Positions 1,803 to 48,600 of a DNA stretch of 64,000 nucleotides are shown piece after piece; position 1 is the stretch's first letter, and each line of letters starts with the position of its first letter. Made by a program: the position numbers and the translations under genes. The stretch lies in NCBI GenBank assembly GCA_026387175.1, contig JAPLME010000012.1, positions 5,849 to 69,848 of the forward strand. Direction: 5' to 3'. The stretch comes from Candidatus Omnitrophota bacterium. GTDB lineage: Bacteria > Omnitrophota > Gorgyraeia > 2-01-FULL-45-10. The notes below the pieces were generated by a model that saw only the letters and a list, made by a program, of their open reading frames with translations, searched no databases and was not told where the DNA came from.

Positions 1803-2074
1803 CCGCCCTCGATTCTGATGGCTTTAATATTGACTAAAGCATCAGCAATCTTTTTATGTGCGGATGCCTCTATTCTTGAAAATGTCGGCCTCGATATCTT
1901 AAGCCTTTTTGCAGCGTCTATCTGATGCATTCCTTCGAGAGATGAGAGGCGTATTGCCTCAAACTCGTCAAGCGTCAAATAAACATTTCTTAATTTACTC
2001 AACGGCTTGCATAACGGCTTAAAACATCTTTCCTGCGGTGCGCATTTGATCCATCTGGTCTTTTTTGGCCTCAA
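1769..2074 (-). CDS. DUF134 (UPF0251) family small DNA-binding protein
   Basis: 101 aa: MRPKKTRWIKCAPQERCFKP...LTLDEFEAIRLSSLEGMHQIDAAKRLKISRPTFSRI...AIRIEGG matches the DUF134 pattern. Confidence 0.55.
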   Translation of the reverse strand: MRPKKTRWIKCAPQERCFKPLCKPLSKLRNVYLTLDEFEAIRLSSLEGMHQIDAAKRLKISRPTFSRIEASAHKKIADALVNIKAIRIEGGCCKVIKGRTG

Positions 2075-4436: not shown

Positions 4437-4648
4437 TGAGTTTGCTTTTACAGAATTTTGTGATATACTTTAATCGAACAAAAGAATCCCTGCGATCGGA
4501 CGCGATTTCGATCGAATAATCTTGAACCTTTAGCATTAAATAAGGGAGCCTAACTAAGTGTACGCCTCGGCGTATGCGCGAGGGCACCCACCTGTTATAA
4601 ACAGGATCAAGATAATTCATATCTCAACGCCGATTGCGGGGATTTTTA

Positions 4649-6688: not shown

Positions 6689-7716
6689 TAAAATTGCCTC
6701 AGGAACCGGACATCGTTTTCGAAGAAGAACCTTATATCGGTCACGCCATATTTCAAAATAGCTATCCGTTCGACTCCCATGCCGAAAGCAAAACCCGTGA
6801 CCTTCTCCGGATCATATCCTACCGCTTCGAATACCTTCGGGTTGACCATCCCGGCCCCCATTATCTCAAGCCAGCCCTTGCCGCCGCACATGGAGCAGCG
6901 CTTTTCGCGCGGTTTGCCGCCGCAAACTATGCATGAGATATCTACTTCGGCGCTCGGCTCCGTGAACGGGAAGAAGCTCGGGCGGAATCGCATACGCGCT
7001 TCGGGGCCGAACATCTGGCGCGCAAATGTTGTCAGGGTGCCCTTCAGGTCCGAGAACTTAATATCGTCCCCTACGACGAGCCCTTCCACCTGGTGGAACA
7101 TAAATGAATGGGACGCGTCAGTAGCATCGGGCCTGAATACGCGTCCGGGGACAATTATAGCGAAAGGGGGCTTATTCTTCTCCATGAAACGCGTCTGGAC
7201 CGGAGAGGTGTGGCTCCTTAAAAGCGTCTTCTTCTCGAAAGAGACGTAGAATGTATCAAAGGCGTCCCGTGAAGGATGCTCAAGCGGAATATTAAGCGTT
7301 TCGAAGTTATAATGTTCAGTCTCGATCTCCGGCCCCTCGACCACCCTGAAACCGAGAGAGATGAAGAGGGCGTTTATCTCGTTTATCGTTTTAGTTATAG
7401 GATGGATGCTGCCGATGCGCCGGGAAGCGCCCGGAAGCGTCACATCTATAGATTCTCCCGCTTCTTCAGCGCCTGAGGTAAGCGCAGCCTTCTCGTCGAG
7501 CGACCTCGTAACATCTTCTTTCAGAACATTTATGAGCCTGCCGACCTCAGGCCTCTCTTCGGCCGAAACAGAGCCCATCTGCTTAAAGAGCTCCGTTATT
7601 ATGCCTTTTCGCCCAAGGTACTTCACCCTTAAGCTTTCAACGGCATCTTTACCGGCCTGGCAGGCGCCGATTTCTTTCAGCGCCTCTTCTGAGATCAGCC
7701 TTATTCGATCTTTCAT
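6688..7716 (-). CDS. pheS: Phenylalanine--tRNA ligase alpha subunit
   Basis: Class II aaRS motifs FRPSFFPFTEPSAEVD and GMGVERIAILKYG. Confidence 0.9.
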   Translation of the reverse strand: MKDRIRLISEEALKEIGACQAGKDAVESLRVKYLGRKGIITELFKQMGSVSAEERPEVGRLINVLKEDVTRSLDEKAALTSGAEEAGESIDVTLPGASRRIGSIHPITKTINEINALFISLGFRVVEGPEIETEHYNFETLNIPLEHPSRDAFDTFYVSFEKKTLLRSHTSPVQTRFMEKNKPPFAIIVPGRVFRPDATDASHSFMFHQVEGLVVGDDIKFSDLKGTLTTFARQMFGPEARMRFRPSFFPFTEPSAEVDISCIVCGGKPREKRCSMCGGKGWLEIMGAGMVNPKVFEAVGYDPEKVTGFAFGMGVERIAILKYGVTDIRFFFENDVRFLRQF

Positions 7717-10687: not shown

Positions 10688-10769
10688 TGACTTTTCCTGC
10701 GCAGTAGAGGACTCGCTTCGAGTCCTCCCGAGCTTACCATATAAAACAATTGTCAAACTACAGTTAATA

Positions 10770-10846
10770 TGGTGGGCAGTAGAGGACTCGAACCTCTGAC
10801 CCCCACGATGTCAACGTGGTGCGCTAACCAACTGCGCTAACTGCCC
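10770..10846 (-). tRNA. tRNA-Val (anticodon GAC)
   Basis: GGGCAGTTAGCGCAGTTGG...anticodon loop TTGACAT...GGTTCGAGTCCTCTACTGCCCACCA. Confidence 0.8.
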
Positions 10847-15774: not shown

Positions 15775-16601
15775 TATTTAACCTCCGCTTCACTAATATT
15801 CTGCAAGTTATTGCTACTATTGAAGTTATCTTTCATTTCTTTCTCAACGCCTAACAATTCATTTACAAAATCCTGATATTTCTGGGCACCAATAGAATGC
15901 TTATCATAAAGCGCTATTGGTTTGCCAAAACCAGGCGCTTCAGTAAGCTTAACATTTCTTGGTATAACAGTATTATAGACCTTGCCTTTGAAAAAATTCC
16001 TCGCTTCATTAATCACTTCATTTGTTAAATTTGTCCTGAAATCTGCCATTGTAAGCAGAACACCTTCGATATTTAAAGCAGAATTTATGTTTTCCTTAAC
16101 AAGGTTTATTGTATTAACTAACTGGCTGAGGCCCTCCAAGGCATAATATTCACATTGTACCGGTATCAGGACAGAATCTGCTGCAGCAAGCGCATTTATC
16201 GTTAAAAGTCCAAGCGATGGAGGACAGTCTATTATTATGAAATCATATTCGGGGAGTATAGCCGCTATTGCTTTTTTCAGCTTGTATTCTCGCCCCATTA
16301 TACCTACAAGCTCTACTTCCGCGCCGGTTAAACTCAATGTGGAAGGGATAATTGAAAAATGATCTATACCACTGCTTATTATAATAGATCTGGGGTCAGC
16401 ATCTTCGATAAGCATTTCATATACACTTGCTTTGATATTATGCTTATTTATACCGAGACCGCTGGTGGCATTACCTTGGGGATCTATATCTATAAGTAGG
16501 GTTCTTTTGCCTGAAAAGGCTAAAAATGTGGCAAGATTAATAGCAGTTGTCGTCTTCCCGACACCGCCTTTTTGATTGCATATAGCGATTGTTCTAGACA
16601 T
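15774..16601 (-). CDS. parA: Chromosome partitioning ATPase ParA/Soj
   Basis: Deviant Walker A KGGVGKTTTAINLA. Confidence 0.85.
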   Translation of the reverse strand: MSRTIAICNQKGGVGKTTTAINLATFLAFSGKRTLLIDIDPQGNATSGLGINKHNIKASVYEMLIEDADPRSIIISSGIDHFSIIPSTLSLTGAEVELVGIMGREYKLKKAIAAILPEYDFIIIDCPPSLGLLTINALAAADSVLIPVQCEYYALEGLSQLVNTINLVKENINSALNIEGVLLTMADFRTNLTNEVINEARNFFKGKVYNTVIPRNVKLTEAPGFGKPIALYDKHSIGAQKYQDFVNELLGVEKEMKDNFNSSNNLQNISEAEVK

Positions 16602-16702
16602 TCGTATTAATTTTCCACGTGGAACAATAATAACTTATTGGAAATTTTTATACTCTATTTCTCAAAAGTCTACACTATATTAGCTAAAAAGTCAAGGTTA
16701 TG

Positions 16703-18280
16703 CTAACTATTCTTAGCTAACGAGGCCTGCTCGGTTATTGTTAATAAAGTGTTAACAACCCAATATAAAACAAGCCCCGATGGCATACTGTAAAATATAA
16801 AGCCGAATACTATCGGCATGATAATCAACATCATCTTTTGCTGCTCTTTTTGCTCAGCCGTAACGGCACTGCCCATCGTCTTAGTGGAGATCTTCTGCTG
16901 CATAACCATGGCCGCTACCATTATGATAGGAAGAATATTTATGCTATTGCCGATTAAGGGCAGAGTAAAGGGCAGCCTGACCGCATCCGGGGAGGACAGA
17001 TCTCTTATCCAGAAGAAACTTGCATTACGCAGCTCTATGGATTTCATCAGCGCTGAATACAAAGCTATGAATATCGGCATCTGGAGCAGTATTGGCAGAC
17101 AGCCGCTCAATGGGTTAATCTTATATTTCTTATATAACTCCATTATCGCCTTATTCAATTTATCCGGGCTATCCTTATACTGCTTCTTCAGCTGTTCCAT
17201 TTGAGGATGTAATTCTTGCATCTTCTGCATGGACTTAAAGCTTTTTACAGTGAGGGGGAATAGAATGATATTCAAAAACACCGACAGCAATATTATCGAA
17301 AATCCCCAGCTGCGTGTTACAAGATGAAAAAATCCCATTACAGTTATCATTACTTTGCTTATTCCGCCGAAGAATCCATAATTAACCGTTGTCTCAAGCC
17401 CATAATTCAGTTCCTTCAATGCGGGTATACTGCTTGGCCCTGCATATAGAACAAACTTATTATCTATGAAAGAATTTGGCTGAATAGTAACAGCATCTGT
17501 ATCTATCCCCATCACCAGGGCGCCGCTTTTACCCTCGCTATAAAATTGGGATTTGGTGGATATGAATGGTTTCAGCACGAGCGAAAAATATTTATTTTTA
17601 AGAGTTGACCAGCCTACGATCCCTAAATTAATTATACGCTGGCCCGGCTTCGGCCTTTTAAAGCCCAGTGTCTTACCGTTTATATCAGCAGTGACTTCAA
17701 CAAATCTCTTATCCTGATTATTAACTTCGGATATGCCGGCGCCTCCTATTATCCTATAACTAAATTGTTTTGACGATCCCGAGATATTTTTTACTAAAAT
17801 GTCTAAACCTATGCCGTGCTTAGACTTATATAATGTGTACCTTTTTGTTATTTCAAGATCGCCCGTTCTAAGAATATAAGTCACCGTCTCTCCGGAGACC
17901 TGTGATGAGTAAAGAGCATTATCTATATCGGTATTAGTTACGCTACTGATATTTAGCAAGTATTCTGCCGGGTTAGTTAATTTTACCAAATCTAAGTTTT
18001 CAGTTGAATTAGATGCTTTAAAGTCTTTAAGCCTGATCTTCTTTATCGCGCCGCCTATATTACTGAATGTCAATATGTAGGTGCCGGTTTCGGCTTCGAG
18101 CTCTTTTTCCTCGACGCTAGGAGTAACTTGCTGTATAATTCCGGCATCTTTGGCAGGTTCTGCCGCTACCGGACTGGCTGCTTCGCGTGGCGGCACAGTA
18201 ACTGGTTTGGGCGATAGAAATTGGAAGGTCACAACGATAAGAACCGATAGTGCTATGGCTAATATCAGCCTTTTTTCCAT
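16703..18280 (-). CDS. yidC: Membrane protein insertase YidC
   Basis: Signal-anchor, large periplasmic domain and a 5-TM C-terminal core; gene order yidC-yidD-rnpA-rpmH. Confidence 0.85.
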   Translation of the reverse strand: MEKRLILAIALSVLIVVTFQFLSPKPVTVPPREAASPVAAEPAKDAGIIQQVTPSVEEKELEAETGTYILTFSNIGGAIKKIRLKDFKASNSTENLDLVKLTNPAEYLLNISSVTNTDIDNALYSSQVSGETVTYILRTGDLEITKRYTLYKSKHGIGLDILVKNISGSSKQFSYRIIGGAGISEVNNQDKRFVEVTADINGKTLGFKRPKPGQRIINLGIVGWSTLKNKYFSLVLKPFISTKSQFYSEGKSGALVMGIDTDAVTIQPNSFIDNKFVLYAGPSSIPALKELNYGLETTVNYGFFGGISKVMITVMGFFHLVTRSWGFSIILLSVFLNIILFPLTVKSFKSMQKMQELHPQMEQLKKQYKDSPDKLNKAIMELYKKYKINPLSGCLPILLQMPIFIALYSALMKSIELRNASFFWIRDLSSPDAVRLPFTLPLIGNSINILPIIMVAAMVMQQKISTKTMGSAVTAEQKEQQKMMLIIMPIVFGFIFYSMPSGLVLYWVVNTLLTITEQASLAKNS

Positions 18281-18286
18281 TTTAGC

Positions 18287-18547
18287 TTACCTTACTGGAT
18301 CGTAGCCGCCTTGTGAAAATGGATGACAGCGCAGTATCCTTTTTAATCCCTTAAATGATCCGGAGAATATTCCGTATTTTTCGATCGCTTCTATAGTATA
18401 TTCTGAGCAGGATGGGTAGAACCTGCAACATTGTATGTTCATGGGCGACAAATACTTACGATAAAACTTCAAAATAGAAATTGCGCCGATTTTTAAATAT
18501 CTCATAGCAGAATCCCGGCTTCTTTCGCCAATGCTAAAAAAACACAA
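18287..18547 (-). CDS. yidD: Membrane protein insertion efficiency factor YidD
   Basis: [10 protein letters not shown]...HPGGYDP-like motif ([14 protein letters not shown]...[12 protein letters not shown]). Confidence 0.8.
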
Positions 18548-18861
18548 CCGATCTCCTTACGCAAAAACTTCTTTTCGGGGCCCTTCCTTACGATCACTAC
18601 CATATCAAAGGCCGGTTTGAAGATCGGTTTATTTTTTCTATAAACTTCGCGGAAAGACCTGCGGATGCGATTGCGAATGCAGGCTCGCCTTACATTCGCG
18701 GAACTTATCGAAAAACCCATACGGTTGTAGGCTAAGCCGTTGGGCATTATCGACAGAATGAAACCGTTTTTTCTGAAAGACCTGCCTTTTTTATATACCG
18801 CCCTGAACTCCCTCGACTTTAAAATATGCTCTTTTTTCCTGAAAGTCTCGTCGGAGATCAT
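18502..18861 (-). CDS. rnpA: Ribonuclease P protein component
   Basis: Basic protein with the RNR motif region ([11 protein letters not shown]). Confidence 0.8.
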
Positions 18862-18995
18862 ACGGTAAGCTTATGGCGGCCTTTTCTCCTTCGTCTCTTT
18901 AATACTTCCCTGCCCCAGCGGTCCTTCATTCTTTTTCTAAATCCGTGTTTTTTCTTTCTCTTGATATTGGATTTGGGCTTTAGGCCATATTTCAT
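18858..18995 (-). CDS. rpmH: 50S ribosomal protein L34 (not in the ORF track because it is under 60 aa)
   Basis: Manual minus-strand translation: [45 protein letters not shown]. The stop TGA overlaps the rnpA ATG. Confidence 0.8.
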   Translation of the reverse strand: MKYGLKPKSNIKRKKKHGFRKRMKDRWGREVLKRRRRKGRHKLTV

Positions 18996-19153
18996 TTTAC
19001 GTTCCTCTCTTTCGCTGTTTTGATGTTGTTAGATTATATCATAAAGGCCCGCCCAGTCAATCATTTAATTTCACTTTATCAATTTTCCTTGCAATGCGGG
19101 CCATACTTTTATATAATAGCGCATGCTGTGCCGTATTAACGGTTAAAAACCAT

Positions 19154-19216
19154 TGTGCACAACATGTGCATAACTTGTTATTTTGTGTGGGACTGGCTTA
19201 ATATTATTGTGGATAA
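19154..19216. promoter_or_regulatory. Replication origin region: DnaA-box cluster upstream of dnaA
   Basis: Perfect TGTGGATAA at 19208-19216, plus variants TGTGCATAA (19165-19173) and TGTGCACAA (19154-19162), with AT-rich tracts at 19060-19120. Classic rpmH/dnaA divergent arrangement. Confidence 0.6.
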
Positions 19217-19234
19217 CTGCAGATTGGCGGACAA

Positions 19235-20608
19235 ATGAGCGATTCCGGCAGCGTCTGGACAAAAGCACTGGATATTATCAGAAAAGAGCTCGATAATGAG
19301 CAGACGTTCAATATCTGGTTCAGCCCTATCAAGTGTTCCTCGTGTACGTCGGAGAAAATGATCCTGGAGGTGCCAAACAAGTTTTTCCAGGACTGGTTAT
19401 TGAACAGATATATGGATGTCCTGAATTCCGGCGCCAGGAAAGCCTGCGGCGCGGAAATCAAGATAGAATTTATCTTCGGTGCCGACGAGTCGGCCAACAC
19501 GGAAATCGAGGCGGCAAAGAAAGAGGAGACGAAAAAAGAAGTTAAAGGTTTTTGGCCGTTTTCGAAACACGCTCCGGACCACGCCAGAGAACTGGGGCTC
19601 GACCCCAAGTATACATTCGATAGTTTTGTTATCGGGTCTTCCAACCGCTTTGCCCATGCCGCGGCCATGGCGGTCTCCGATTCTCCGGCGAAAGCCTATA
19701 ATCCTCTCTTTATATACGGCGGCACAGGGCTGGGTAAGACGCATCTTATGCACGCCATAGGGGATCGTGTTCTCGCGAAGAGCCCAAAGACAAAAGTCCT
19801 GTACATTTCGAGCGAGGACTTCACCAACCAGATGATAAGCGCCATCCAAAACCGATCGATGATCAAGTTCAGGGAGAAGTACCGCAGCGTCGATATCCTT
19901 CTGATAGACGATGTGCATTTCATCGCCGGCAAAGATTCCACGCAGGAAGAGTTCTTCCATACTTTTAACACTTTATACGACGCGCACAAACAGATCGTCG
20001 TGACGAGCGACCGCCCCCCGAAGGAGATAAACAAGCTGGAGGAACGGCTCGTATCCAGGTTTTTGTACGGACTCGTGACGGATGTCCAGCCGCCTGATTT
20101 TGAGACGAGGATAGCTATATTAAAGAGGAAGTCCGAAATAGCGGCATTGACTCTGCCTGAAGATGTTTTTTATTTTCTTGCGGAAAAGGTTAAGACCAAT
20201 ATCAGGGAGCTGGAGGGCGCGCTTATACGTGTGGTCGCATATTCGAAGCTTATAGGAAAAGAGGTCTCCGTCGACCTCGCTAAGGAAGTGTTGAAGGACA
20301 TGATCATAGAGGGTGAGAAGAAGATCACCATAGACCTTATACAAAAGAAGGTGAGCGAGTATTTCGATATAAAACTTTCCGATATGAGAGCGAAGAAGCG
20401 CTCGAAGGCAATAGCATACCCGCGTCAGGTGGCGATGTATCTCGCCAGGCAGCTCACTGATTATTCACTTCCGGAGATAGGAGACCAGTTTGGGGGGCGC
20501 GACCATACTACGGTAATACACGCCTGCACTAAAGTGGAAGGTGATTTAAAGAGTAAAGACGGTTTTAAGGTTTTGTTGGGGCGATTAATAGAAAGTATTA
20601 AAGGATAA
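19235..20608 (+). CDS. dnaA: Chromosomal replication initiator protein DnaA
   Basis: AAA+ Walker A GGTGLGKTHL; domain IV DNA-binding region VAMYLARQLT. Confidence 0.95.
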   Translation: MSDSGSVWTKALDIIRKELDNEQTFNIWFSPIKCSSCTSEKMILEVPNKFFQDWLLNRYMDVLNSGARKACGAEIKIEFIFGADESANTEIEAAKKEETKKEVKGFWPFSKHAPDHARELGLDPKYTFDSFVIGSSNRFAHAAAMAVSDSPAKAYNPLFIYGGTGLGKTHLMHAIGDRVLAKSPKTKVLYISSEDFTNQMISAIQNRSMIKFREKYRSVDILLIDDVHFIAGKDSTQEEFFHTFNTLYDAHKQIVVTSDRPPKEINKLEERLVSRFLYGLVTDVQPPDFETRIAILKRKSEIAALTLPEDVFYFLAEKVKTNIRELEGALIRVVAYSKLIGKEVSVDLAKEVLKDMIIEGEKKITIDLIQKKVSEYFDIKLSDMRAKKRSKAIAYPRQVAMYLARQLTDYSLPEIGDQFGGRDHTTVIHACTKVEGDLKSKDGFKVLLGRLIESIKG

Positions 20609-37656: not shown

Positions 37657-38222
37657 CCGACAAAGAGGTAATTGGGCTATTCGAAAAAAACAATGCTCTT
37701 CTGAGCGGGCATTTTAAACTTTCCAGCGGCCGGCATAGCGAAAAATACCTGCAATGCGCTCTCGTGCTCCAATATCCGGATATAGCCGAAAAGCTCGCGA
37801 AGGAGCTGGCCGAGAAATTCGCCGGCACCAAAATCGACCTTGTAGTAGGGCCGGCACTCGGCGGAATGACATTTGCGTATGAAGTCGCCAGGGCGCTCGG
37901 TGTACGCGGAATATTCACAGAGCGGGATGGGGGTAAGATGACCTTGCGTCGCGGCTTCTCGATAGCTTCCGGAGAGAAGGTCCTTATAGCGGAAGATGTT
38001 GTGACGACAGGCCTGTCCACTAAAGAGGTGATGGATGTCGTAAGGGCACATGGCGGTGCAGTAGTGGCCGTGACGAGCATAATAGACAGGAGCGATGCAG
38101 CTCCCGACTACGGAGTCAGGTTTGAGTCTCTCGCGAAGATCAAGGTAGAGACATATGAGCCGGAAGCGTGTCCGCTCTGTAAAGCAGGAAGCCCGGCGGT
38201 AAAGCCCGGTTCCAGGAAATAA
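37653..38222 (+). CDS. pyrE: Orotate phosphoribosyltransferase
   Basis: PRT motif VLIAEDVVTTGLS. Confidence 0.9.
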   Translation: MTDKEVIGLFEKNNALLSGHFKLSSGRHSEKYLQCALVLQYPDIAEKLAKELAEKFAGTKIDLVVGPALGGMTFAYEVARALGVRGIFTERDGGKMTLRRGFSIASGEKVLIAEDVVTTGLSTKEVMDVVRAHGGAVVAVTSIIDRSDAAPDYGVRFESLAKIKVETYEPEACPLCKAGSPAVKPGSRK

Positions 38223-38237
38223 GAAAAATAATTTTGT

Positions 38238-38312
38238 GGGCAAGTAGCTCAATGGCGGAGCACTCGGTTTACATCCGAGTGGTTACAGGTTCGAGTCCTG
38301 TCTTGCCCACCA
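38238..38312 (+). tRNA. tRNA-Val (anticodon TAC)
   Basis: GGGCAAGTAGCTCAATGGCGGAGCACTCGGTTTACATCCGAG...GGTTCGAGTCCTGTCTTGCCCACCA. Confidence 0.8.
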
Positions 38313-38350
38313 TAATAAGTCAATCTACCTCTGTGTTTTAAGGTTTAGCG

Positions 38351-38473
38351 TAGGGACTTGAAGCTTGCGAGCGCCGACGAATAGGAGGAAAAGGTCTCCG
38401 ACCGGCAGCGAGCAAGCTGGCTACGCAGGTGAGCTCTGCGAACCGAAGTAGCCGAGTCCTGTCTTGCCCACCA
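38351..38473 (+). repeat. tRNA-linked conserved ~100-nt element, copy 1; ends in a direct repeat of the tRNA-Val(TAC) 3' end
   Basis: Core GAAGCTTGCGAGCGCCGACGAATAGGAGGAAAAG...CAGCGAGCAAGCTGGCTACGCAGGTGAGCTCTGCGAACCGAAGTAGCCGA, then GAGTCCTGTCTTGCCCACCA. The final 21 nt are identical to tRNA positions 38292-38312. The left end GGGACTTGAA is near-inverse of the T-arm TTCGAGTCC. Confidence 0.6.
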
Positions 38474-38486
38474 TCCTTCATCTATT

Positions 38487-38729
38487 ATGAGCAACTGGAC
38501 CCTATATATACTCAAATGTTCCGACGGATCTCTGTATACCGGGATAACGACGGATCTCGGGAAGCGCTTTAAATGCCACAATGAAGGCAAGGCCTCGAAG
38601 TATACGAGATCCAGGCTTCCCGTGAAACTGGCATATAAAAGATCTCTGAAGGATGAATCTTCCGCAAGAAAAGAAGAGGCCCGAATTAAGGGCCTCTCCA
38701 GAAAAGCAAAACTCGATATTATATCTTAG
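38487..38729 (+). CDS. GIY-YIG nuclease superfamily small protein (YhbQ/UPF0213-like)
   Basis: WTLYILKCSDGSLYTGITTDLGKRFKCHNEG...KYTRSRLPVKLAY. Confidence 0.7.
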   Translation: MSNWTLYILKCSDGSLYTGITTDLGKRFKCHNEGKASKYTRSRLPVKLAYKRSLKDESSARKEEARIKGLSRKAKLDIIS

Positions 38730-41539: not shown

Positions 41540-41616
41540 GGGGACGTAGTTCAGTTGGTTAGAACGTCAGATTGTCGATCTGAAGGTCGCGGGTTCGACC
41601 CCCGTCGTCCCCGCCA
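41540..41616 (+). tRNA. tRNA-Asp (anticodon GTC)
   Basis: GGGGACGTAGTTCAGTTGGTTAGAACGTCAGATTGTCGATCTGAAGGTCGCGGGTTCGACCCCCGTCGTCCCCGCCA. Confidence 0.8.
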
Positions 41617-41623
41617 CTTTAGG

Positions 41624-41659
41624 AAATGCCTTACAAAATAACTGTAGGGCATTTTTATT
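41624..41659 (+). terminator. Rho-independent terminator-like hairpin after tRNA-Asp
   Basis: aaatgcc-(17 nt)-ggcattt followed by TTTATT. Confidence 0.4.
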
Positions 41660-41660
41660 G

Positions 41661-41788
41661 GTGGCGGGGATATAGGGGGTCGAAGCTCGCGAGCGCCGAC
41701 GAATAGGAGGAAAAGCGCTATGCGCGACAGCGAGCGAGCTGGCTACGCAGGCGAGCTCTGCGAGCCGAAGTAGCCGACCCCCGTCGTC
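41661..41788 (+). repeat. tRNA-linked conserved ~100-nt element, copy 2; bracketed by an inverted and a direct copy of the tRNA-Asp 3' end
   Basis: Left: TGGCGGGGAtataGGGGGTCGAA (reverse complement of TTCGACCCCCGTCGTCCCCGCCA with a 4-nt change). Core nearly identical to copy 1. Right: CGACCCCCGTCGTC (41775-41788). Confidence 0.6.
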
Positions 41789-41942
41789 AAATCCTCTTGA
41801 CTAATCCTAATTCCAAGAGTAGCATATTCTTTAACTGGTTATTAGGCAGTTACTTAAGGAGCCGAAGCGACGTTCGACTCCCCTCGTCCCCGCTGGAGTT
41901 TGACATATGTGCAGAACCCATAATTAGATATCCGAGTTTCTC

Positions 41943-41970: not shown

Positions 41971-42049
41971 TCATGGAATAGACGGCACAAAAACGGCACA
42001 GTCTTAAGGGAGGGGTTAAGCCTATCCCCTAGTATCTTTAAAGGATAAA

Positions 42050-42670
42050 ATGAAAACAAGAGATTGGTTAGAAAAAAATAAAATCTTTTTTGAAACCGTT
42101 GCTGCCATAGCCCTCTCGCTCATGGCTTTGTTAGTTTCCTGCACGCAATCCGAAATAGCCAGAAATCAATTAGTCCTTTCTGGAAATCCTATAATTTTAA
42201 TCGAGCCTTCAGACACTGTGAAAGGATCCATCGGTGAATTCAAAATATCCGTTAAAAATATCAGTATGGCAGAACTATACGATATTCGTATTTATGAGGA
42301 TTACTTTGTCACTATGGCACAAGAAAATGGTTCAATTAACTTAGTAAGTGTAGGGGCGTTTATAACTAAACCAAATTTGGTTATCCCACAATTAAAACCG
42401 AATAATAGGGAAGATATTACGATTAATTGTAAATTAATAATTAAAAATATGAAGGAGCTTTACCGCGAACACAAAGGGGTAGAAATGCGAATTGCCCGGA
42501 TAAGAATTAAATATTGCAGAAAACTAGATGGGAAAGAATTTATGCAAACCAAAGCATATATTATTGCGGGACAGGGTGATTTTCTTATTGATTACGATGA
42601 GCGTGGCATAAGAACTCCTATGACTCCCAGTTTTGAGGATATCAAAAATATACTCGGGGCTGAAAATTAG
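42050..42670 (+). CDS. Hypothetical protein: N-terminal single TM anchor plus a ~170-aa soluble domain (AT-rich island gene 1)
   Basis: 206-aa ORF with TM segment IFFETVAAIALSLMALLVS; no recognisable catalytic motif; AT-rich codon usage unlike the flanking core genes. Confidence 0.5.
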   Translation: MKTRDWLEKNKIFFETVAAIALSLMALLVSCTQSEIARNQLVLSGNPIILIEPSDTVKGSIGEFKISVKNISMAELYDIRIYEDYFVTMAQENGSINLVSVGAFITKPNLVIPQLKPNNREDITINCKLIIKNMKELYREHKGVEMRIARIRIKYCRKLDGKEFMQTKAYIIAGQGDFLIDYDERGIRTPMTPSFEDIKNILGAEN

Positions 42671-42748
42671 TGCTATCATTAGAAAAGATAGCACAGTATC
42701 TATTAATGAGTCTTATTACTAAGTCGCATAAGAAAGATAGGAGGAACG

Positions 42749-43843
42749 ATGGCAAAGCTCAATGAGGATATAGAGCAATTAAAGGAAGACCTCGAAGCAG
42801 TTACTGCCGTGGATGATGAAACTTCAAACGAAAATGTTCCCATAAAATATGCAATTAGTTCTTATGGGGCAGATTATCCAGTTGATGGATTGGTTAAAAG
42901 ATTGCAGGCCAAAGATGTTATAATTCCCGAATTTCAAAGAGAATATGTATGGACACTTAGACAAGCATCTAGGTTTATAGAATCCCTTCTTTTGGGTCTT
43001 CCCGTTCCCGGCGTTTTTCTTTCAAAAGAACAAGAAACGGGCAAACTCTTAGTCATCGATGGTCAGCAGAGATTAAAAACATTGCAGTTCTTTTTTGAAG
43101 GCGTTTTTCGTGGAAAAGAATTTCGACTTACTGAAGTACAAGATGAATACAAAGGACGATTGTATAAAGAACTCGAAGACATAGATAAGCGACAATTACA
43201 AAACTCTGTTATTCATGCCACGGTATTAAAACAAGACACCCCAAAGGATGACCAGAGCAGTGTATATCACGTTTTCGAACGATTAAATACGGGCGGGTCT
43301 ATTCTTTACCCACAGGAAATAAGAGCTTGTATATATCATGGGCCCTTTAACAACGTTTTATCCGAAATCAATAACAATACGCACTGGCGAAACATTTTTG
43401 GAAAGATAAATAAACGACTAAAAGACGAAGAATTGCTATTGAGATTCTTCGCTTTATATTATGACAAGGCTACGTATACAACGCCTTTCAAATCTTTTCT
43501 TAACACTTTTATGGAAAGTAACAGAAAAATGGAAAGGTATTCTAAGGCTAATCTTGAAAAACTATTTTCTCCGGCAATGGAAGTGGTATATAAATGTATT
43601 GGCGAGAAAGCATTTAGATTAGATAAAGCTATTAATGCCGCTGTTTTTGAATCAGTAATGGTTGGTCTAGCGACTAGACTAGAGAAAGGAGCTATTAATA
43701 ACGCAACGCAAGTTAAATCAGAATACGAAAAATTAATAAAAATTCCAGATTATTTGGCAGCATGCAAAACAGGAACTTCTGATAAGGGAAAAGTCGAAAA
43801 AAGGCTATCTTTAGCCATTGACGCGTTTAGTCGGATTTCATAA
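42749..43843 (+). CDS. DUF262 (ParB-like / GmrSD N-terminal domain) protein, stand-alone
   Basis: IPEFQREYVWT...RFIESLLLGLPVPGVFL...LLVIDGQQRLKTL and FERLNTGG match DUF262 signature motifs. Good RBS AGGAGG 4 nt upstream. Confidence 0.8.
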   Translation: MAKLNEDIEQLKEDLEAVTAVDDETSNENVPIKYAISSYGADYPVDGLVKRLQAKDVIIPEFQREYVWTLRQASRFIESLLLGLPVPGVFLSKEQETGKLLVIDGQQRLKTLQFFFEGVFRGKEFRLTEVQDEYKGRLYKELEDIDKRQLQNSVIHATVLKQDTPKDDQSSVYHVFERLNTGGSILYPQEIRACIYHGPFNNVLSEINNNTHWRNIFGKINKRLKDEELLLRFFALYYDKATYTTPFKSFLNTFMESNRKMERYSKANLEKLFSPAMEVVYKCIGEKAFRLDKAINAAVFESVMVGLATRLEKGAINNATQVKSEYEKLIKIPDYLAACKTGTSDKGKVEKRLSLAIDAFSRIS

Positions 43844-44301
43844 TGCTTAGTCATGTTACTTCGGAAATAGACAAGATAGACGCTCTTTTTAAGTTTGAAA
43901 ACGACATCATTAATGATGAAGTAAGAGCTTATTGGGCCGAATATCTTTGTGTGCGAGTTGCTGGATTAATAGAGGCCGTTCTAAGAATAATACTATTTTA
44001 TTATGCTAAGAATAAATCGCATGAGAACGTTGCGCGTTACGTATCCAAGAAGGTAGAGGGTGTTACAAATCTTAATTCAGAGAAAATTGAAAACTTGTTA
44101 GGAGATTTTAGCGAGGTTTGGCAAGAGCGCTACGTTCAAAATATTACGGATTCTCAAAAAGCAGCAATCGGCAATATTTACATAAATAGAAATAGAGTTG
44201 GTCACGGACGCAATTCCGAATTATCTTATTATAGAGTAAAAGAATATTATAAGGAAATAAAAGGTGCGTTATTAGCTATTTTGAAAATCGTTGAAGCATA
44301 A
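43843..44301 (+). CDS. HEPN-domain protein (Rx4H motif, RiboL-PSP/Swt1-like flavour)
   Basis: 152-aa all-helical ORF with NRNRVGHG (R-x4-H) near the C-terminal third. The start ATG overlaps the DUF262 stop by 1 nt (ATAATG). Confidence 0.55.
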   Translation: MLSHVTSEIDKIDALFKFENDIINDEVRAYWAEYLCVRVAGLIEAVLRIILFYYAKNKSHENVARYVSKKVEGVTNLNSEKIENLLGDFSEVWQERYVQNITDSQKAAIGNIYINRNRVGHGRNSELSYYRVKEYYKEIKGALLAILKIVEA

Positions 44302-44320
44302 AAACTTTTACTTATCCAGA

Positions 44321-44400
44321 AAAATAGGAAAATAGGGGGGGCCGGTCCAGAAAGTACCACTCTATAAGCTAATGGGCTGGCACCAAAAGAGCCGTCCCCG
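44321..44400. repeat. Divergent copy of the GGGGCCATCC-family repeat with an aaaataggaaaatagggg leader
   Basis: aaaataggaaaataggggggGCCGGTCCAGAAAG...GGGCTGGCACCAAAAG. The 18-mer leader recurs at 45488-45505. Confidence 0.4.
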
Positions 44401-44467
44401 TAAATACGTATGAGATCCGATCCTCATAATATTTTTTACAAGTATCAGATTTTCAAGGAGGTTTGTT

Positions 44468-45013
44468 ATGTCGCTTTTAGGAGAAGAGTTAGTAGAAGAA
44501 TGGTTAAATAGAAAAGGCTATTTCACAATCCGCGGTGCAAAAATCGGAAACGGAGAAATAGACTTGCTTGCTGTTAAATATACAAGCAAAGGAATTGACT
44601 GTTGGCATTATGAGGTTCAGGCCTCCCTTCGACCAGTAAGTTATATTTGTTCAGCGCCTCAAGAGCTTCGTAAATTAGGTAAGTCCGCTCACAATGCTAA
44701 GAAACGTCCTATGTCTGAAATCGAGACTGCGGCGAAAGAATGGATTTATAAAAAGTATTTAGATCCAAAGAAAGAAAATATTAGAAGGAGTCTTTGGCCA
44801 ATGAAATGGAGCTTTGGTCTTATTGTGGGGAATGTTAAACACTCAGAAGAATTGGAAATTATTGCTAAAAATAATATCACCATTGTTCGAATTGCGGATA
44901 TTATTAAAAACCTTTCGCCAAAATCTCAAACTAATAGCAAGGATTTTAGAGTTGGAGCAGCAAGTGGTGCTGATTTAATTGATTTGGTTTTTGCTCACTC
45001 CCAACTTGCATAA
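44468..45013 (+). CDS. Hypothetical protein with possible PD-(D/E)xK nuclease-like N-terminal motif
   Basis: EELVEEWLNRKGYFTIRGAKIGNGEIDLLAVKY...WHYEVQAS resembles an E...D...E-x-K/Q restriction-endonuclease-fold core. Weak; strong RBS AAGGAGG. Confidence 0.4.
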   Translation: MSLLGEELVEEWLNRKGYFTIRGAKIGNGEIDLLAVKYTSKGIDCWHYEVQASLRPVSYICSAPQELRKLGKSAHNAKKRPMSEIETAAKEWIYKKYLDPKKENIRRSLWPMKWSFGLIVGNVKHSEELEIIAKNNITIVRIADIIKNLSPKSQTNSKDFRVGAASGADLIDLVFAHSQLA

Positions 45014-45015
45014 GC

Positions 45016-45088
45016 GGGGCCATCCCACAAAGTGCCACCCTGCATGACAAGAGAAGATCCTAGGCTGTCCCCAAAACAGGATGGCACC
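45016..45088. repeat. GGGGCCATCC-family palindromic repeat (MITE/REP-like), copy B
   Basis: ggggccatcccacaaagtgccaccctgcatgacaagagaagatcctaggctgtccccaaaacaggatggcacc. Terminal 10-nt arms are inverted complements. Confidence 0.6.
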
Positions 45089-45115
45089 AAATATTCTTAG
45101 TGAAGGAGAAATGAG

Positions 45116-45469
45116 ATGTTTGAACATAAGCATGAAAAAATAGCGTCGGTTTCAGTCTTCATAAAAAGGCTGGTCGGGTATATCGCAGCCGCTATTCTAT
45201 TGATTTTACTCTCCTTATTTGTTGGAATCGCCGGATATCATTGGCTAGCCGGCTTTAGCTGGATCGATTCGCTCTTAAACGCATCTATGATCTTAGGCGG
45301 TATGGGGCCGGTGAACTTGCTGACCAATCTCGGCGCAAAAGTCTTTGCGTCCCTGTACGCGCTTTTTAGCGGACTTGTATTCATTGCGGTAATGGGAATA
45401 GTTTTCTCTCCGATCATACATAGAATGCTTCATACATTTCATATCGACGACAAAGATTTACATAAATGA
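45116..45469 (+). CDS. Small hypothetical membrane protein (3 predicted TM helices) flanked by repeat copies
   Basis: 117-aa ORF with hydrophobic segments YIAAAILLILLSLFVGIAGY, MILGGMGPVNLL, LYALFSGLVFIAVMGIVF; RBS GGAG. Confidence 0.45.
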   Translation: MFEHKHEKIASVSVFIKRLVGYIAAAILLILLSLFVGIAGYHWLAGFSWIDSLLNASMILGGMGPVNLLTNLGAKVFASLYALFSGLVFIAVMGIVFSPIIHRMLHTFHIDDKDLHK

Positions 45470-45487
45470 TAACCTTGAGATTCGGTC

Positions 45488-45648
45488 AAAATAGGAAAAT
45501 AGGGGACAGCGCCCTATTTCCGAAAGTAATGAGGCCATCTCATAAGGGGACACCCTGCATAATAAGCAAGAACCGGGGCCATCCCACAAAGGGACGCCCT
45601 GCATGATAAGAGAAGCTTCTAGGCTGTCCCCAAATAGGATGGCCCCAA
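45488..45648. repeat. GGGGCCATCC-family repeat, copy C (leader 18-mer, a partial unit and a full unit in tandem)
   Basis: aaaataggaaaataggggacagcgccctattt... gaggccatctcataaggggacaccctgcat... ggggccatcccacaaagggacgccctgcatgataagagaagcttctaggctgtccccaaataggatggcccc (full unit 45575-45646). Confidence 0.6.
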
Positions 45649-45685
45649 AACACCAGAATACAAATCATATGAAAGAAGTGGCGCA

Positions 45686-48600
45686 ATGAAGAATTTGCTT
45701 TCCATGATCATAATTATTTCAGTAATCTCTCTTATCAATCGACCAACCATGGCGGACTCGTGGAACTTTGCCGTATTTGGCGATGACCGTAGTGACAATA
45801 CGACTGGCTCCGCAGTAAATACAACCGCTGTTACTGCTATCGCAACTGATATTACAAACAACAGGAATGCATCCTTTGCTATAGTCCTCGGCGATCTTGT
45901 ACATGGAAAAGAAAATGATACTCCCATTGCCACCCAGTTCAATACCTTCAAAACTGCTGCGACAAGCGGCGGATTTAAGGTAGCAGGCGAAGCCGGCGCT
46001 GGGGTTCCATATTATCCCGTCCGTGGTAATCACGACAACGATGTTGTCGATCCTTTAGGCGTAGCATGGAAGGCGGCATTCCCCACATTGCCTCAAAATG
46101 GACCTACCACAAATACATCCGGAGGCGGCAATAGCGAAGTGGGGATGACGTATAGTTTCACTAATGGCAATTCCCTGTTTTTAAGTTTAGATGAATATGT
46201 GAACACAGACACTTATCCAAATCAAGTCAATCAGACTTGGGTGAATACTCAATTAAGCAGCTCTACTGCCGCTCACGTGTTTGCTTATGGGCATTTGCCT
46301 GCATATTATACGGTTGCCGGGGAATCCCTGTCTATTTATGCGGCTGCAAGAGATGCTTTTCTGACCAGTCTTTATGATAAAAACGGCCAAATCTATTTCG
46401 CAGGGCACCAACATTTTAGTGCTATCGCAAGTGCGAATATAGACGGGAACGCATCAAAGGTGTTCTATCCGATCATTGATGGCGCAGGTGGCGCTCCAGG
46501 AACTCTATGGGACGGCACATACACAGATCCTAATGTAACAGGTCTCTACTACAATAGCACTAGCAGCACTCCTTACTATTACACATATTCAATAGTTACC
46601 GTTGATGACGACCTTGTATGGTTAAGGTTGTATGGGACGACAAGCGTGACGACGCCGACTTGGCTGAACCTATATGCGCTTGTTATCAGTGGAACTCTTA
46701 CAACTGATACTAATACTCTGATAAGCGACGTTGCGAATTATTCAACGATTGATTTTAAGCAAGCTTCTAACGGTACCTATTCGAAAGTAATCATCGGCAC
46801 AGGCAACATAGTAAAAAGTGGCGCTGCTGAACTGACCCTGAGCGGCGCCAATACCTACACAGGAGCCACGACAGTCAACGCCGGAACGCTCAAAGCCGGA
46901 GTGGCAACTCACGCCTTTGGTGTGGGCTCAGCCGTGACGGTTGCGACCGGAGGGACACTGGATTTGAACGGCTATTCCCAGACTATCGGTTCACTCGCAG
47001 GTGGCGGCACAGTCATTAACGGTGATACAATCGATACGATCTTGACGACAGGCGATACTGCCTCGACCACATTTTTCGGGATTATCCAGGACGGTACTCA
47101 CAAATTGGGATTCACCAAGGCTGGAACTGGGACACTTACTCTTACCGGCGCCAACGCCTACACCGGTACTACAACGATCAGCGCTGGTACGCTGCAAATA
47201 GGAAACGCCAGTGCTCTCGGTACAGGAGCCGTTACGAACAATGCTACGTTGGATGTCGGCACGACCAATCTTGCAGTTACCGGCGCCTATAAACAAAACG
47301 CAGGTTCAACTTTAAAACTTACCGCAAATTCTTCCTCCAGTTTTGGCAAGATCACGTCCGGCGTTGCTGCGACGGTAGATGCCGGAAGCACTCTTAACGT
47401 TACGGTCGGAGGCTTTATTCCGAATAACACAACTCTTACAATTATAGATACAGGAGGAAAGGGTATAGGGAGCGTCCCAACTACAATTATTTCAAGTAAT
47501 TCTTTCATGACATTCTCCATCGAGAACTCCGGTAACAACCTTGTTCTTACCGTGAACCGTTCCGGAAGTAACAGCTTCAGCGGTGTCGCAGCCAATTCCA
47601 ATGCGGCTACTGTCGGCGCCGCTCTCGATAATATCACCAGTCCGTCCGCAGACATGCAGAGCGTTCTTACGGCGCTCGGCAATTTATCGCCGAGCCAGGT
47701 CGCATCTTCTTTAAATAGCATGACTCCTACCGTTGACGGCGCGGTGACACAATCGGCTCTATCCATGCTTAGCCAGATAACGGGCTCGACCGTAACGCAT
47801 CTTGAAAATGTAAGCACGGGAGGTGTAACCGGTATCTCAACAGGCGACGATTATTTACATGGTTTAGATATTTGGGCGCAGGGCTTAGGTGATTATGCTC
47901 ATCAGGATCCCCGCGGGTTTAGTAACGGTTATAATGCGACGTCGTGGGGCGTTTCGGGCGGCGCGGATATCCCGCTTAATATAGGCGATGATTTGCTGCG
48001 TATGGGTATAGGTTCCGGTTATGGCCAGACCTTTGTCCGCTCAAAGGATAGTTCCGGAAGGAATGATATCGACAGCATTCCGGGAACATTATATTGTGCT
48101 TATGAAAATAATAAATATCCTCTTTATTTGGATATCACTTTCACTTTTATATATAATCTCTATCAAGCCTCTCGCGCAGTTACGGTCGGCACGTTAACCG
48201 AGCGTACCGCCAATGCCGATTATAACGGCCAGCAGTATTCGGGCTATTTTGAGGGCGGCTACAGCTTTTTCTATAAGAATCTCCGCATGACGCCTCTCGT
48301 TTCATTTCAATACATGCATCTGCATACAGGCAGTTACACCGAAACCGGCGCCGACGCGCTTAACTTAAGTGTCAATAGCCAGGATTATGACATGGCCATG
48401 ACGGGTTTCGGCGCTAAAGCAGCGTATCCATTAGAGTTTAAATACGGGACCATCATGCCGGACCTGCATGCCAAGTGGCTCTATGATTGGGCCGGCGATA
48501 ATCAGGCTGCAACTGCGTCTTTTGCCGGTGGCGGAACAGCATTCGGTACAAACGGTTTTAGGGCTGCGCGATCGGGATATGATATGGGCACAAAGATTAG

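Follow-up and report, generated by a model that had tools for sequence, protein, structure and literature searches.

A small folded element behind tRNA and tmRNA genes of Omnitrophota and other bacteria, a candidate non-autonomous mobile element

Genes for transfer RNA (tRNA) and transfer-messenger RNA (tmRNA) are the classic landing sites of large integrase-borne islands, whose classic signature is a direct repeat of the tRNA 3' end that starts in the T-loop. The islands and phages that use this T-loop sublocation lie in the orientation of the target gene, occupy one gene each, carry their own integrase and bring along their own copy of the tRNA end. Insertion beside a tRNA 3' end is also a property of casposons: the casposase of A. 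boonei depends on the T-psi-C-loop segment of tRNA-Pro and produces a 15-bp duplication, of which 5 bp overlap the 3' end of the gene (PMC5137440). In a 64-kb stretch of a Candidatus Omnitrophota genome (contig JAPLME010000012.1; the window hereafter), we analysed a gene-less element of ~150 nt that stands behind tRNA-Val(TAC) (copy 1) and again behind tRNA-Asp(GTC) (copy 2), and that has relatives in several phyla. We read the copies as those of a small, mobile but non-autonomous element, inserted in gene orientation directly behind genes for tRNA and tmRNA by the duplication mechanism outlined below; we give this full reading about an even chance. That the element is mobile, non-autonomous and targets tRNA 3' ends is, taken by itself, very likely.

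The family was collected with the 19-mer CGACGAATAGGAGGAAAAG from the core as search word, scanning one genome per species. Among the 26 loci obtained, ~20 held a whole element and the remainder were chance matches in coding sequence. Most hosts were metagenome-assembled genomes (MAGs) labelled Omnitrophota, the others being assigned to Planctomycetia, 'Deltaproteobacteria', Deferrimicrobiaceae and Spirochaetia. A metagenome scan with a degenerate 18-mer added at least ~13 further members, confirmed by the covariance model, among the 120 loci listed. The inserts measure 110-170 nt, have no open reading frame (ORF), contain a core of ~95 nt and are multi-copy. Nearly all copies for which sufficient upstream sequence exists are preceded, at 13-63 nt and on the same strand, by a tRNA gene; at locus L067 the upstream gene encodes tmRNA. 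The host genes comprise at least 12 tRNA species (Val, Asp, Met, Lys, Thr, Tyr, Leu, Pro, Gly, Arg and Ser isoacceptors) besides tmRNA, and behind every one of them the copy, of uniform size, bears that gene's own repeat. The original prediction, made from the letters of the window, had asked whether genome-wide copies might lack tRNA genes and whether the similarity might vanish on careful alignment; the relatives are overwhelmingly linked to tRNA or tmRNA genes, and the similarity holds, with strong covariation.

Known families did not account for the element. Rfam release 15, applied to the whole window at the gathering threshold, returned only tRNAs and 6S RNA, and an E-value search of positions 38200-38520 gave only tRNA and chance-level matches, none over the core; none of the Rfam intron, ribozyme and IS605-type RNA models matched the core. 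BLAST found no match in 72,556 plasmids or 50,697 phages, and all 56 pattern matches in IMG/VR were due to chance, the best of them (L171) being coding sequence. A phage or plasmid vehicle was rejected, the plasmid, phage and IMG/VR collections holding no true match. Full-text literature searches found no description of the element. The family is real and widespread, and it is apparently undescribed, in line with the original prediction, which had not recognised it as a described element.

The most regular feature of the copies is the direct repeat. In 17 of the 23 mapped copies it is 20-22 nt long and runs from T-loop position 56/57 (C56/G57) through CCA; where the junction is unambiguous, the repeat starts at G57/A57, the centre of the T-loop TTCGA palindrome. 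Shorter or diverged repeats, which we count as decayed, were found at tRNA-Asp of the window, in L009 and at tRNA-Tyr of L075. The junction of the core with position 56 is exact, and the spacers on the left vary between 13 and 63 nt. The inverted arm that precedes the core always ends in GAA (the complement of T54-C56) and reaches 5-9 nt into the 3' strand of the T-stem. We interpret the direct repeat as a probable duplication of target positions 56-76, made at insertion, because a conservative crossover with a different tRNA would leave a hybrid, broken tRNA, whereas an intact tRNA with its own perfect repeat is what we observed.

The same geometry bears on the alternative of attachment-site scars, in which larger islands with an integrase had integrated into tRNA genes, were later deleted and left the copies behind, one of the two options in the original prediction. 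The likeness extends to the targets (tRNA and tmRNA genes), the orientation and the direct repeat from the T-loop to the 3' end, and the window also has a low-GC stretch after tRNA-Asp and a further tRNA-Asp-like fragment at 41872-41893. Unlike such islands, the element uses many tRNA species, is flanked by the host gene's own sequence, is gene-less and has a covarying fold. Random deletion would not leave a constant structured unit, with a uniform ~95-nt core and perfect repeats of its own tRNA, behind at least 12 tRNA species and tmRNA; the covariation indicates selection on folding; no integrase was found within or beside the copies in the flanks examined; and a conservative crossover cannot place the new tRNA's own sequence on both sides. 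We consider scars of this kind very improbable.

The structure was derived by hand on six sequences and turned into a covariance model (R1), with which all members were re-aligned. MAFFT combined with RNAalifold on the raw members did not recover the structure, because the stems are too variable. In the alignment of 35 members, standard pairs fill 92.8% of the pair cells (66.8% after shuffling), and changes on both sides are seen in 28 of the 31 pairs. The covariation score was 0.542 against 0.148 for shuffled alignments, none of 500 shuffles reached 0.542, and sliding the partners by 1-3 columns lowered the score to ≤0.07. The core fold is maintained by compensatory changes. It is a three-way junction of helices P1, P2 and P3, in which P1 is formed by the two tRNA-derived arms; all seven P1 pairs covary across the 35 members, and 94% of their cells pair. 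The hypervariable P2 (7-11 bp) encloses a near-invariant GC(G/C)CCGACGAAUAGGAGGAAAAG, a small variable hairpin and CGNMAG, while P3 is interrupted by a symmetric internal loop (GNA/GNA) and ends in a hairpin. The purine-rich loop, with the consensus GACGAAUAGGAGGAAAAG, keeps its 19-21-nt sequence across phyla. This conservation is not merely an artefact of the search, since copies without the search word, found by the model (L002b, L006b, L075a), retain the loop variants GACCUUAUGGGAGGAAAAG, GCUGACGAAGAGGAAGAAAAG and GAGCGAAUAGCGAGGAAAAG. A small structured element tied to tRNA 3' ends, conserved, folded and multi-copy, had been anticipated from the window and was borne out by these data.

The strand that folds is less evident. 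Recurrent non-canonical pairs are tandem G.A/A.G, and they and the conserved purine-rich loops lie on the tRNA-sense strand, which points to this strand as the folded one. Assignment of an RNA strand by wobble pairs fails, because G.U and A.C pairs are equally frequent, and folding with DNA parameters rated both strands equally good. We also considered a short peptide gene behind the AGGAGG sequence and rejected it: copy 2 has an ATG and a 17-codon frame there, and copy 1 and most relatives have no start codon at this place.

Six tRNA genes were located in the window by ARAGORN and Rfam; the features around the two copies and the core-less frame described below are collected in Table 1. The predicted ~100-nt unit behind two tRNAs, bounded by inverted and direct copies of its own tRNA, matches the sequence. 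The two cores, which had been called near-identical, differ at ~13 of 96 positions in a pairwise alignment; the two conserved halves are as predicted, and the 'variable 16 nt' between them correspond to a swapped small hairpin. Between the cores there are two compensatory pair swaps, one in P2 and one in P3a, and P2a is entirely exchanged. Each conserved half occurs exactly twice in the window at ≤3 mismatches, and none of 100 shuffled sequences gave any match. With filters off, the covariance model scored both copies with E ~1e-33 across the 64 kb, and everything else with ≤12.3 bits. The terminal repeat of 14 nt proposed for tRNA-Asp stands, and that of 21 nt for tRNA-Val extends to 22 nt (CCA and one T). 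The 5' arm of copy 1 is the reverse complement of tRNA-Val positions 54-64, save one G.U pair and one mismatch, and the first ~8 nt of its 3' arm form the 3' strand of P1.

Table 1. Positions of the element copies, their host genes and associated features in the window (empty cells: no entry).
Feature	Position	Strand	Remarks
Host tRNA-Val(TAC)	38238..38312	+	ARAGORN; Rfam tRNA 71.2 bits
Upstream repeat copy in tRNA-Val	38292-38313	+	tRNA positions 56-76 and one further T; 22 nt
Copy 1, spacer	38313..38351	+	39 nt; long-spacer subfamily; TAAT directly after CCA
Copy 1, spacer box TTTAAGGT	38337-38344	+	Complementary to tRNA-Val ACCA and first spacer bases
Copy 1, 5' arm AGGGACTTGAA	38352..38362	+	11 nt; inverted T-loop/T-stem copy; pairs with 3' arm as P1
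Copy 1, core	38363..38452	+	90 nt; three-way junction; minimum free energy fold z = -3.5; R1 129.8 bits
Copy 1, P2	38362-38368 with 38412-38418	+	Covariance model
Copy 1, tandem G.A pair	38369-70 with 38410-11	+	
Copy 1, conserved purine-rich loop GCCGACGAAUAGGAGGAAAAG	38373-38393	+	
Copy 1, variable hairpin P2a	38393-38403	+	
Copy 1, P3	38419-38424 with 38448-38453	+	
Copy 1, symmetric GNA/GNA internal loop and hairpin P3a	38428-38444	+	
Copy 1, 3' arm	38453..38474	+	Direct repeat of tRNA-Val positions 56-76 with CCA and one T; 22/22 identity to 38292-38313
GIY-YIG domain ORF	38487-38729	+	80 aa; Pfam E = 1.7e-16; starts 13 nt past the element's CCA
Host tRNA-Asp(GTC)	41540..41616	+	ARAGORN, Rfam; upstream repeat copy 41596-41609
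tRNA-Asp trailer	41617..41658	+	Terminator-like hairpin (ATGCCTTAC...GTAGGGCAT) and T-run; read from sequence
Copy 2, long 5' arm TGGTGGCGGGGATATAGGGGGTCGAA	41659..41684	+	26 nt; inverted near-whole tRNA-Asp 3' end
Copy 2, core	41685..41774	+	Architecture as copy 1; R1 131.8 bits
Copy 2, 3' arm	41775..41788	+	14-nt direct repeat of tRNA-Asp positions 56-69 (= 41596-41609); acceptor/CCA part decayed
Possible remnant of an older copy	41860..41893	+	AGCCGAAGCGAC / CCGAAGCGAC resembles core 3' end CCGAAGTAGCC
Core-less frame behind tRNA-Val(GAC)	10701..10769	-	tRNA at 10770-10846, minus strand
Core-less frame, spacer	10730-10769	-	40 nt; family type; box TTATATGGT at 10736-10744
Core-less frame, 5' arm	10717-10729	-	Inverted copy; then one G
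Core-less frame, 3' arm	10701-10715	-	15-nt tRNA-Val(GAC) repeat

Copy 2 represents a second arrangement (type B), in which a trailer separates the tRNA from the element; it recurs in the syntenic L009 and in L123, L145 and L015. The terminator scan made no call at the hairpin of the tRNA-Asp trailer, whose 9-nt loop, by our reading, exceeds the loop limit of the scan. The long arm of copy 2 is the reverse complement of tRNA-Asp positions 54-76 without 64-68 and with one extra TGG (CCACCA on the other strand), and the arm at the orthologous tRNA-Asp in L009 has an identical layout. On the opposite strand, both long arms (window 41659-41684; L009 ~3575-3598, minus strand) read ...CCCCGCCACCA, that is, a tRNA 3' end followed by a second, non-encoded CCA. 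The extra CCA in the two arms goes back to a single event; it could be due to chance (1 in 64) or be the trace of an RNA that was given an additional CCA. Further downstream, a diverged tRNA-Asp 3' fragment (GTTCGACTCCCCTCGTCCCCGC, 41872-41893) follows the stretch that resembles the core end, and TCGTCCCCGC occurs in the window only in the 41860-41893 region and in tRNA-Asp. Judged from its sequence, an older copy may once have been stacked behind copy 2 and have left this region as its remnant.

Evidence for mobility came from the comparison of filled and empty sites in relatives, which had been suggested along with the original prediction. L009 (Omnitrophota STD1_81) is syntenic with the window over pyrF, pyrE, tRNA-Val-TAC, the GIY-YIG gene and tRNA-Asp, with PyrE 63% identical. 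The tRNA-Val-TAC site is filled in the window and empty in L009, where the tRNA is followed by 31 nt and the ATG of the GIY-YIG gene. Copies are also stacked: tRNA-Leu of L002 carries three, with different cores and spacers, each closed by the same 20-nt tRNA repeat, and L011, L012 and L016 have two copies each. In the MAG Zod_Metabat.276, tRNA-Gly-CCC and tRNA-Gly-TCC are followed by identical cores, and several contigs of this MAG end inside the element; in near-identical strains of the organism of the window, contigs break inside both copies. A look-up of exact proteins, meant to find closer strains with empty sites, yielded nothing but short contigs whose ends lie in the repeats or close to them. 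The modules of the core are shuffled across subfamilies, with the P2 of L009 equal to that of L013 and its P3 equal to those of L123 and the window.

The site between tRNA-Val(GAC) and tRNA-Leu was first described as the empty form of the element. The inverted and direct arms are there as stated, and the frame folds as a 10-bp hairpin. The family spacer in front of them had been missed: it can be aligned, box TTATAWGGT included, with the spacers that eight full copies have behind tmRNA and other tRNAs. Because the family's own spacer, with its ATATGGT box, is present, the frame is a family member without a core; most simply, it is a deletion derivative that lost the core, and no virgin target. 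The proposal that the element targets pre-existing hairpins is consequently not established, since this hairpin-only site looks like core loss. Core-less frames were encountered once among the 50 tRNA and tmRNA genes examined, and a partial internal deletion, in which the loop between two GCGCC repeats is gone, was seen in L011 (2760-2828). The tRNA-Asp frames of the window and L009 are orthologous, sharing the trailer start, the terminator and the long arm with CCACCA, and they hold cores of different subfamilies, so replacement of a core inside an existing frame is possible.

An all-against-all BLASTP of 394 ORFs from 30 loci showed no recurring protein beyond syntenic housekeeping genes, and the element is therefore taken to be non-autonomous. 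Pfam found a single integrase among the neighbours, in L021, upstream of the tRNA and outside the repeats. The GIY-YIG ORF next to copy 1 was considered as a part of the element and rejected; it is a resident gene, because it also follows the empty tRNA-Val in L009. In L009, a 225-aa ORF (4185-4859, minus strand) occupies the interval from pyrE to tRNA-Val, which in the window is empty, and a homologous 170-aa ORF lies 107-619 nt past the element in L016. Both stand beside tRNA genes, share the motifs LYWAEG and (Y/F)WSN...PL.QFNKS, and have only a weak helix-turn-helix match in Pfam; they may be free-standing genes of the homing-endonuclease kind.

In being small, non-coding, multi-copy, intergenic, often foldable and dependent on an enzyme in trans, the element resembles MITEs (miniature inverted-repeat transposable elements) as well as REP-like repeats (Correia, ERIC, RUP, REPIN). 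Those carry terminal inverted repeats that match a parent insertion sequence, make duplications of 2-10 bp and have no specificity for tRNA genes. In our element, by contrast, the inverted arms match the local tRNA and vary from site to site, the duplication is 20-22 nt long, double the length of any that is usual for MITEs, and defined by structure, and the interior covaries across phyla; its outer ends (the spacer start and the 3' strand of P3) are not inverted repeats of one another. IS200/IS605 elements and TnpB guide RNAs are similar in their structured non-coding end, in target recognition by pairing and in the ~20-nt 3' flank that is read as RNA. They differ in that IS200/IS605 insertion makes no duplication, whereas the element has one and no tnpA or tnpB recurs in the flanks; moreover, a TnpB-like nuclease guided by the 3' arm of the element would cut the adjoining intact tRNA gene.

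The spacer holds a second region that is complementary to the target. Homologous long spacers align behind nine different tRNA and tmRNA genes, and their box is complementary to the discriminator base, CCA and the first three spacer bases (NCCAUAU/AUAWGGN), with 88.9% of the pairing kept in the nine long-spacer copies. In L142, the discriminator changed from A to G and the box from U to C, one A-U to G-C covariation, and there are two swaps at the seventh pair; these events are too few to place the box among the NCCA-pairing RNAs. The T-box and RNase P (L15) also pair with the NCCA of tRNA, which the box recalls. We tried TATAAGGT as a plus-strand sigma-70 -10 element and rejected it: the final T (position 6) is missing, the promoter scan makes no call, and the sequence is complementary to NCCA instead. 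The left part of the element, formed by the box and the 5' arm, is thus complementary to the T-loop and NCCA and not to the variable acceptor strand. The same two-block pattern is found in the type B long arms, which match positions 54-63 and 69-76 and mismatch 64-68.

From these features we propose how insertion might proceed. The target would be found through pairing of the 5' segment of the element with the T-loop and NCCA on the 3' strand of the tRNA gene. The duplication could arise from two nicks ~20 bp apart followed by fill-in, or from synthesis primed at a nick in the centre of the T-loop, which places the presumed cutting or priming points at the TTCGA palindrome and ~20 bp beyond it. 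The T-loop and CCA stand at a constant distance, so that a ruler anchored at the GGTTCGANTCC box would land after CCA without sensing the tRNA end. The moving form would be a folded, single plus-sense strand, most likely RNA produced by read-through from the tRNA promoter. Such read-through could supply the RNA, as most copies sit between the tRNA and its apparent original terminator. A trans-acting enzyme, for which the conserved core might serve as a handle, would copy the RNA into DNA, either in a target-primed manner or by staggered integration of the Cas1 or RT-Cas1 (reverse transcriptase-Cas1) type. A single-stranded plus-sense intermediate fits the exact right junction, the variable left side (spacers of 13-63 nt, and of 17 and 38 nt next to identical cores), the fixed orientation and the module shuffling. 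Between RNA and DNA, we regard an RNA-mediated route as only the more likely of the two.

The retroelements offer several parallels to this route. Elements of the R2 type, short interspersed elements (SINEs) and group II introns share the fixed orientation, the precise 3' junction and the variable 5' side, and the pairing of element and target that is kept after insertion has counterparts in P1 of the R2 ribozyme with rRNA and in the exon- and intron-binding sites (EBS-IBS) of introns; the shuffling of modules is compatible with template switching. However, site-specific retroelements have a linked reverse transcriptase, and none recurs in the flanks examined here. Group II introns, including the hairpin-targeting class C, possess domains V and VI, exceed 600 nt and make no duplication, in contrast to a ~95-nt core with a duplication and no match to an Rfam intron. 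Taken furthest, the element could be an RNA-borne unit like a site-specific SINE, transcribed from the tRNA promoter, excised by the tRNA 3'-end machinery, guided by pairing with the T-loop and NCCA, and written back by an RT or an RT-Cas1-like enzyme. The type B long arms would then be fill-in products of a panhandle-folded complementary DNA, and CCACCA could be a trace of post-transcriptional CCA addition. We know of no SINE-like element in bacteria, and this specific form is unlikely in our estimate. In a stronger variant, the core itself may be a ribozyme of a new kind or the guide scaffold of an RNA-directed insertion.

We must also note several observations that weigh against our reading of the copies as mobile elements with the mechanism above. 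No tRNA was found near L007, L020 and L148 (a GC-rich subfamily), L017 and L053. The identical cores of Zod_Metabat.276 have spacers of 17 and 38 nt, which leaves the left boundary of the moving unit ambiguous, and in the promoter scan the spacer box is a poor sigma-70 -10 element. Among the flanks examined, there was no candidate transposase, reverse transcriptase or Cas1. In type B copies (tRNA-Asp of the window, L009, L123, L145), the element is separated from the tRNA by a terminator, so that repeat and insertion point do not adjoin and transcription of the element together with the tRNA is doubtful. The pairs are nearly all Watson-Crick (901), with wobble pairs scarce and symmetric (14 G.U and 14 A.C); this near-absence of wobble is unusual for RNA, and a folded DNA strand accounts for it equally well or better. 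Against the RNA route, the Watson-Crick-only pairing and the type B copies weigh most. Finally, the element stands behind tRNA-Lys in four syntenic Omnitrophota genomes, with perfect 21-24-nt repeats and diverged spacers, which could reflect long-term retention for a host function.

This last case leads to the possibility that the element is in essence a small RNA gene that serves the host, made with or next to the tRNA, whose 3' end mimics the T-arm/acceptor 3' strand and CCA, any mobility being secondary. Such an RNA could act as a decoy for tRNA 3'-end enzymes or toxins, as an external-guide-like partner of RNase P, or as an NCCA-sequestering partner. In favour of a host role are the preservation of structure by compensatory change in every helix, the purine-rich loop common to several phyla, the retention of perfect repeats at tRNA-Lys and the covariation of the anti-NCCA box with the discriminator base in L142. 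On the other hand, descent from active master copies would likewise conserve structure, occupancy is patchy (tRNA-Val-TAC being filled in the window and empty in L009), any tRNA species may carry the element, copies stack in tandem or decay, and near-identical copies break assemblies. A host RNA is in our view doubtful.

The scarcity of wobble pairs, in turn, would fit an element that works as folded single-stranded DNA, comparable to an integron attC site or the attP hairpin of CTX phage, with no RNA involved. P1 would rebuild the double-stranded T-loop/T-stem, and a recombinase, HUH or Cas1-type enzyme would pair P1 with the real gene. In favour of this reading, P1 reproduces the target segment exactly as a duplex, folding with DNA parameters works as well for one strand as for the other, and a terminator precedes the type B copies. 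Support also comes from the known casposase, which needs the T-psi-C-loop palindrome and makes its 15-bp duplication at the 3' end of a tRNA gene (PMC5137440). Nevertheless, mismatches between purines and long single-stranded loops, both conserved here, are found more typically in RNA. Sites of the attC type conserve shape and little sequence, whereas a 19-21-nt loop sequence is conserved here; no integrase or other enzyme of the required kind was found near any copy among the flank ORFs, and the element was not found in the IMG/VR, plasmid and phage collections. We judge a pure DNA element to be quite unlikely.

Whichever nucleic acid moves, the nearest documented chemistry appears, by analogy, to be that of the Cas1-family integrases. 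Casposon and CRISPR integration have in common with our element the position beside a tRNA 3' end, the T-psi-C palindrome in the target, ruler-set staggered cuts and a long duplication (PMC5137440). The repeat of our element likewise starts at the centre of the T-loop TTCGA palindrome and is long. Repeated insertion in those systems yields repeat-insert-repeat arrays, to which the three stacked copies in L002 may be compared. The differences are nonetheless considerable. The casposon duplication is 15 bp with a 5-bp overlap of the tRNA gene, whereas here 20-22 nt lie wholly inside the tRNA; casposons are large elements with terminal inverted repeats and genes for Cas1 and PolB, whereas our inserts are 110-170 nt with a conserved fold and no cas1 in the flanks examined. 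Casposons also lack the internal arm that in our element is complementary to the duplicated target.

Other inserts were observed behind tRNA genes of these genomes. A different 63-nt insert follows tRNA-Gly(GCC) in L118 (7473-7535, minus strand) in the geometry of our element, with a 20-nt repeat from G57 to CCA, a short T-stem-complementary arm and one hairpin; the orthologous site in L086 (downstream of 1287, minus strand) is empty. At tRNA-Gln of L022, the insert measures 113 nt and the repeat 16 nt. Several such cargo families may thus share the insertion mechanism. Directly after the CCA of tRNAs or of element repeats we also found a hairpin-like motif of ~50 nt, T(C/T)CTACTTCGCC...GGCTTCGTAGGA, in L022 (~3345-3395 and 2402-2452), L075 (~2880-2926, minus strand) and L006 (~756-800 and 1152-1200), apparently a second family of small repeats that occupies tRNA trailers. 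In L067 (~6530-6589) and L118 (~7380-7472), two unrelated metagenome contigs, the minus strand has TGGTTCGACGCGC, an A/T-rich hairpin and GCTTGCTCACCAT...GTCCCGAG after the repeat. Two Omnitrophota MAGs, L016 (~1130-1254, minus strand) and L010 (~1725-1850, plus strand), have after the tRNA repeat an element of ~110 nt with CTAGAACGTTCGG...CCGAACGTTCT as its bounding inverted repeat. Short hairpins and then TTGATCC(TGA), for example AAATTTGCGAAGCAAATTTGATCCTGA, stand just past the CCA of the repeat in L013, L024 and L145; they may be native tRNA terminators of these genomes or another repeat.

Elsewhere in the window, a 6S/SsrS RNA gene was identified at 4484-4646 (plus strand; Rfam RF00013, 57 bits, above the gathering score). 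Within ~16000-20000, the GC skew turns from negative to positive near 19-20 kb and the GC content dips to 0.39 at 16-18 kb, which is compatible with a replication origin or a strand-bias switch. The low-GC region after tRNA-Asp (42000-46000, GC 0.36-0.41) contains ORFs of 206, 364, 152 and 181 aa, none of them seen to be an integrase; the 206-aa ORF has no Pfam match, and the 364-aa ORF has a DGQQR motif of the kind known from DUF262/ParB-like nucleases. Between 44.4 and 52 kb, no integrase-like ORF of ≥130 aa was recognised by reading, Pfam not having been run on these ORFs.

These copies very likely belong to a family of small non-autonomous mobile elements, and there is a substantial chance that its mechanism is new in kind. 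If both mobility and mechanism hold, the family would constitute a new class of bacterial non-autonomous element and would point to a trans-acting enzyme of the Cas1-like, reverse-transcriptase or HUH type with programmable, pairing-based targeting. If, instead, the RNA serves the host, it would represent a new family of RNAs that mimic tRNA ends. The mobile reading, if true, would also account for recurrent assembly breaks and stray tRNA 3' fragments in genomes of Omnitrophota and Planctomycetia, and the covariance model would let annotators mask or label these loci.

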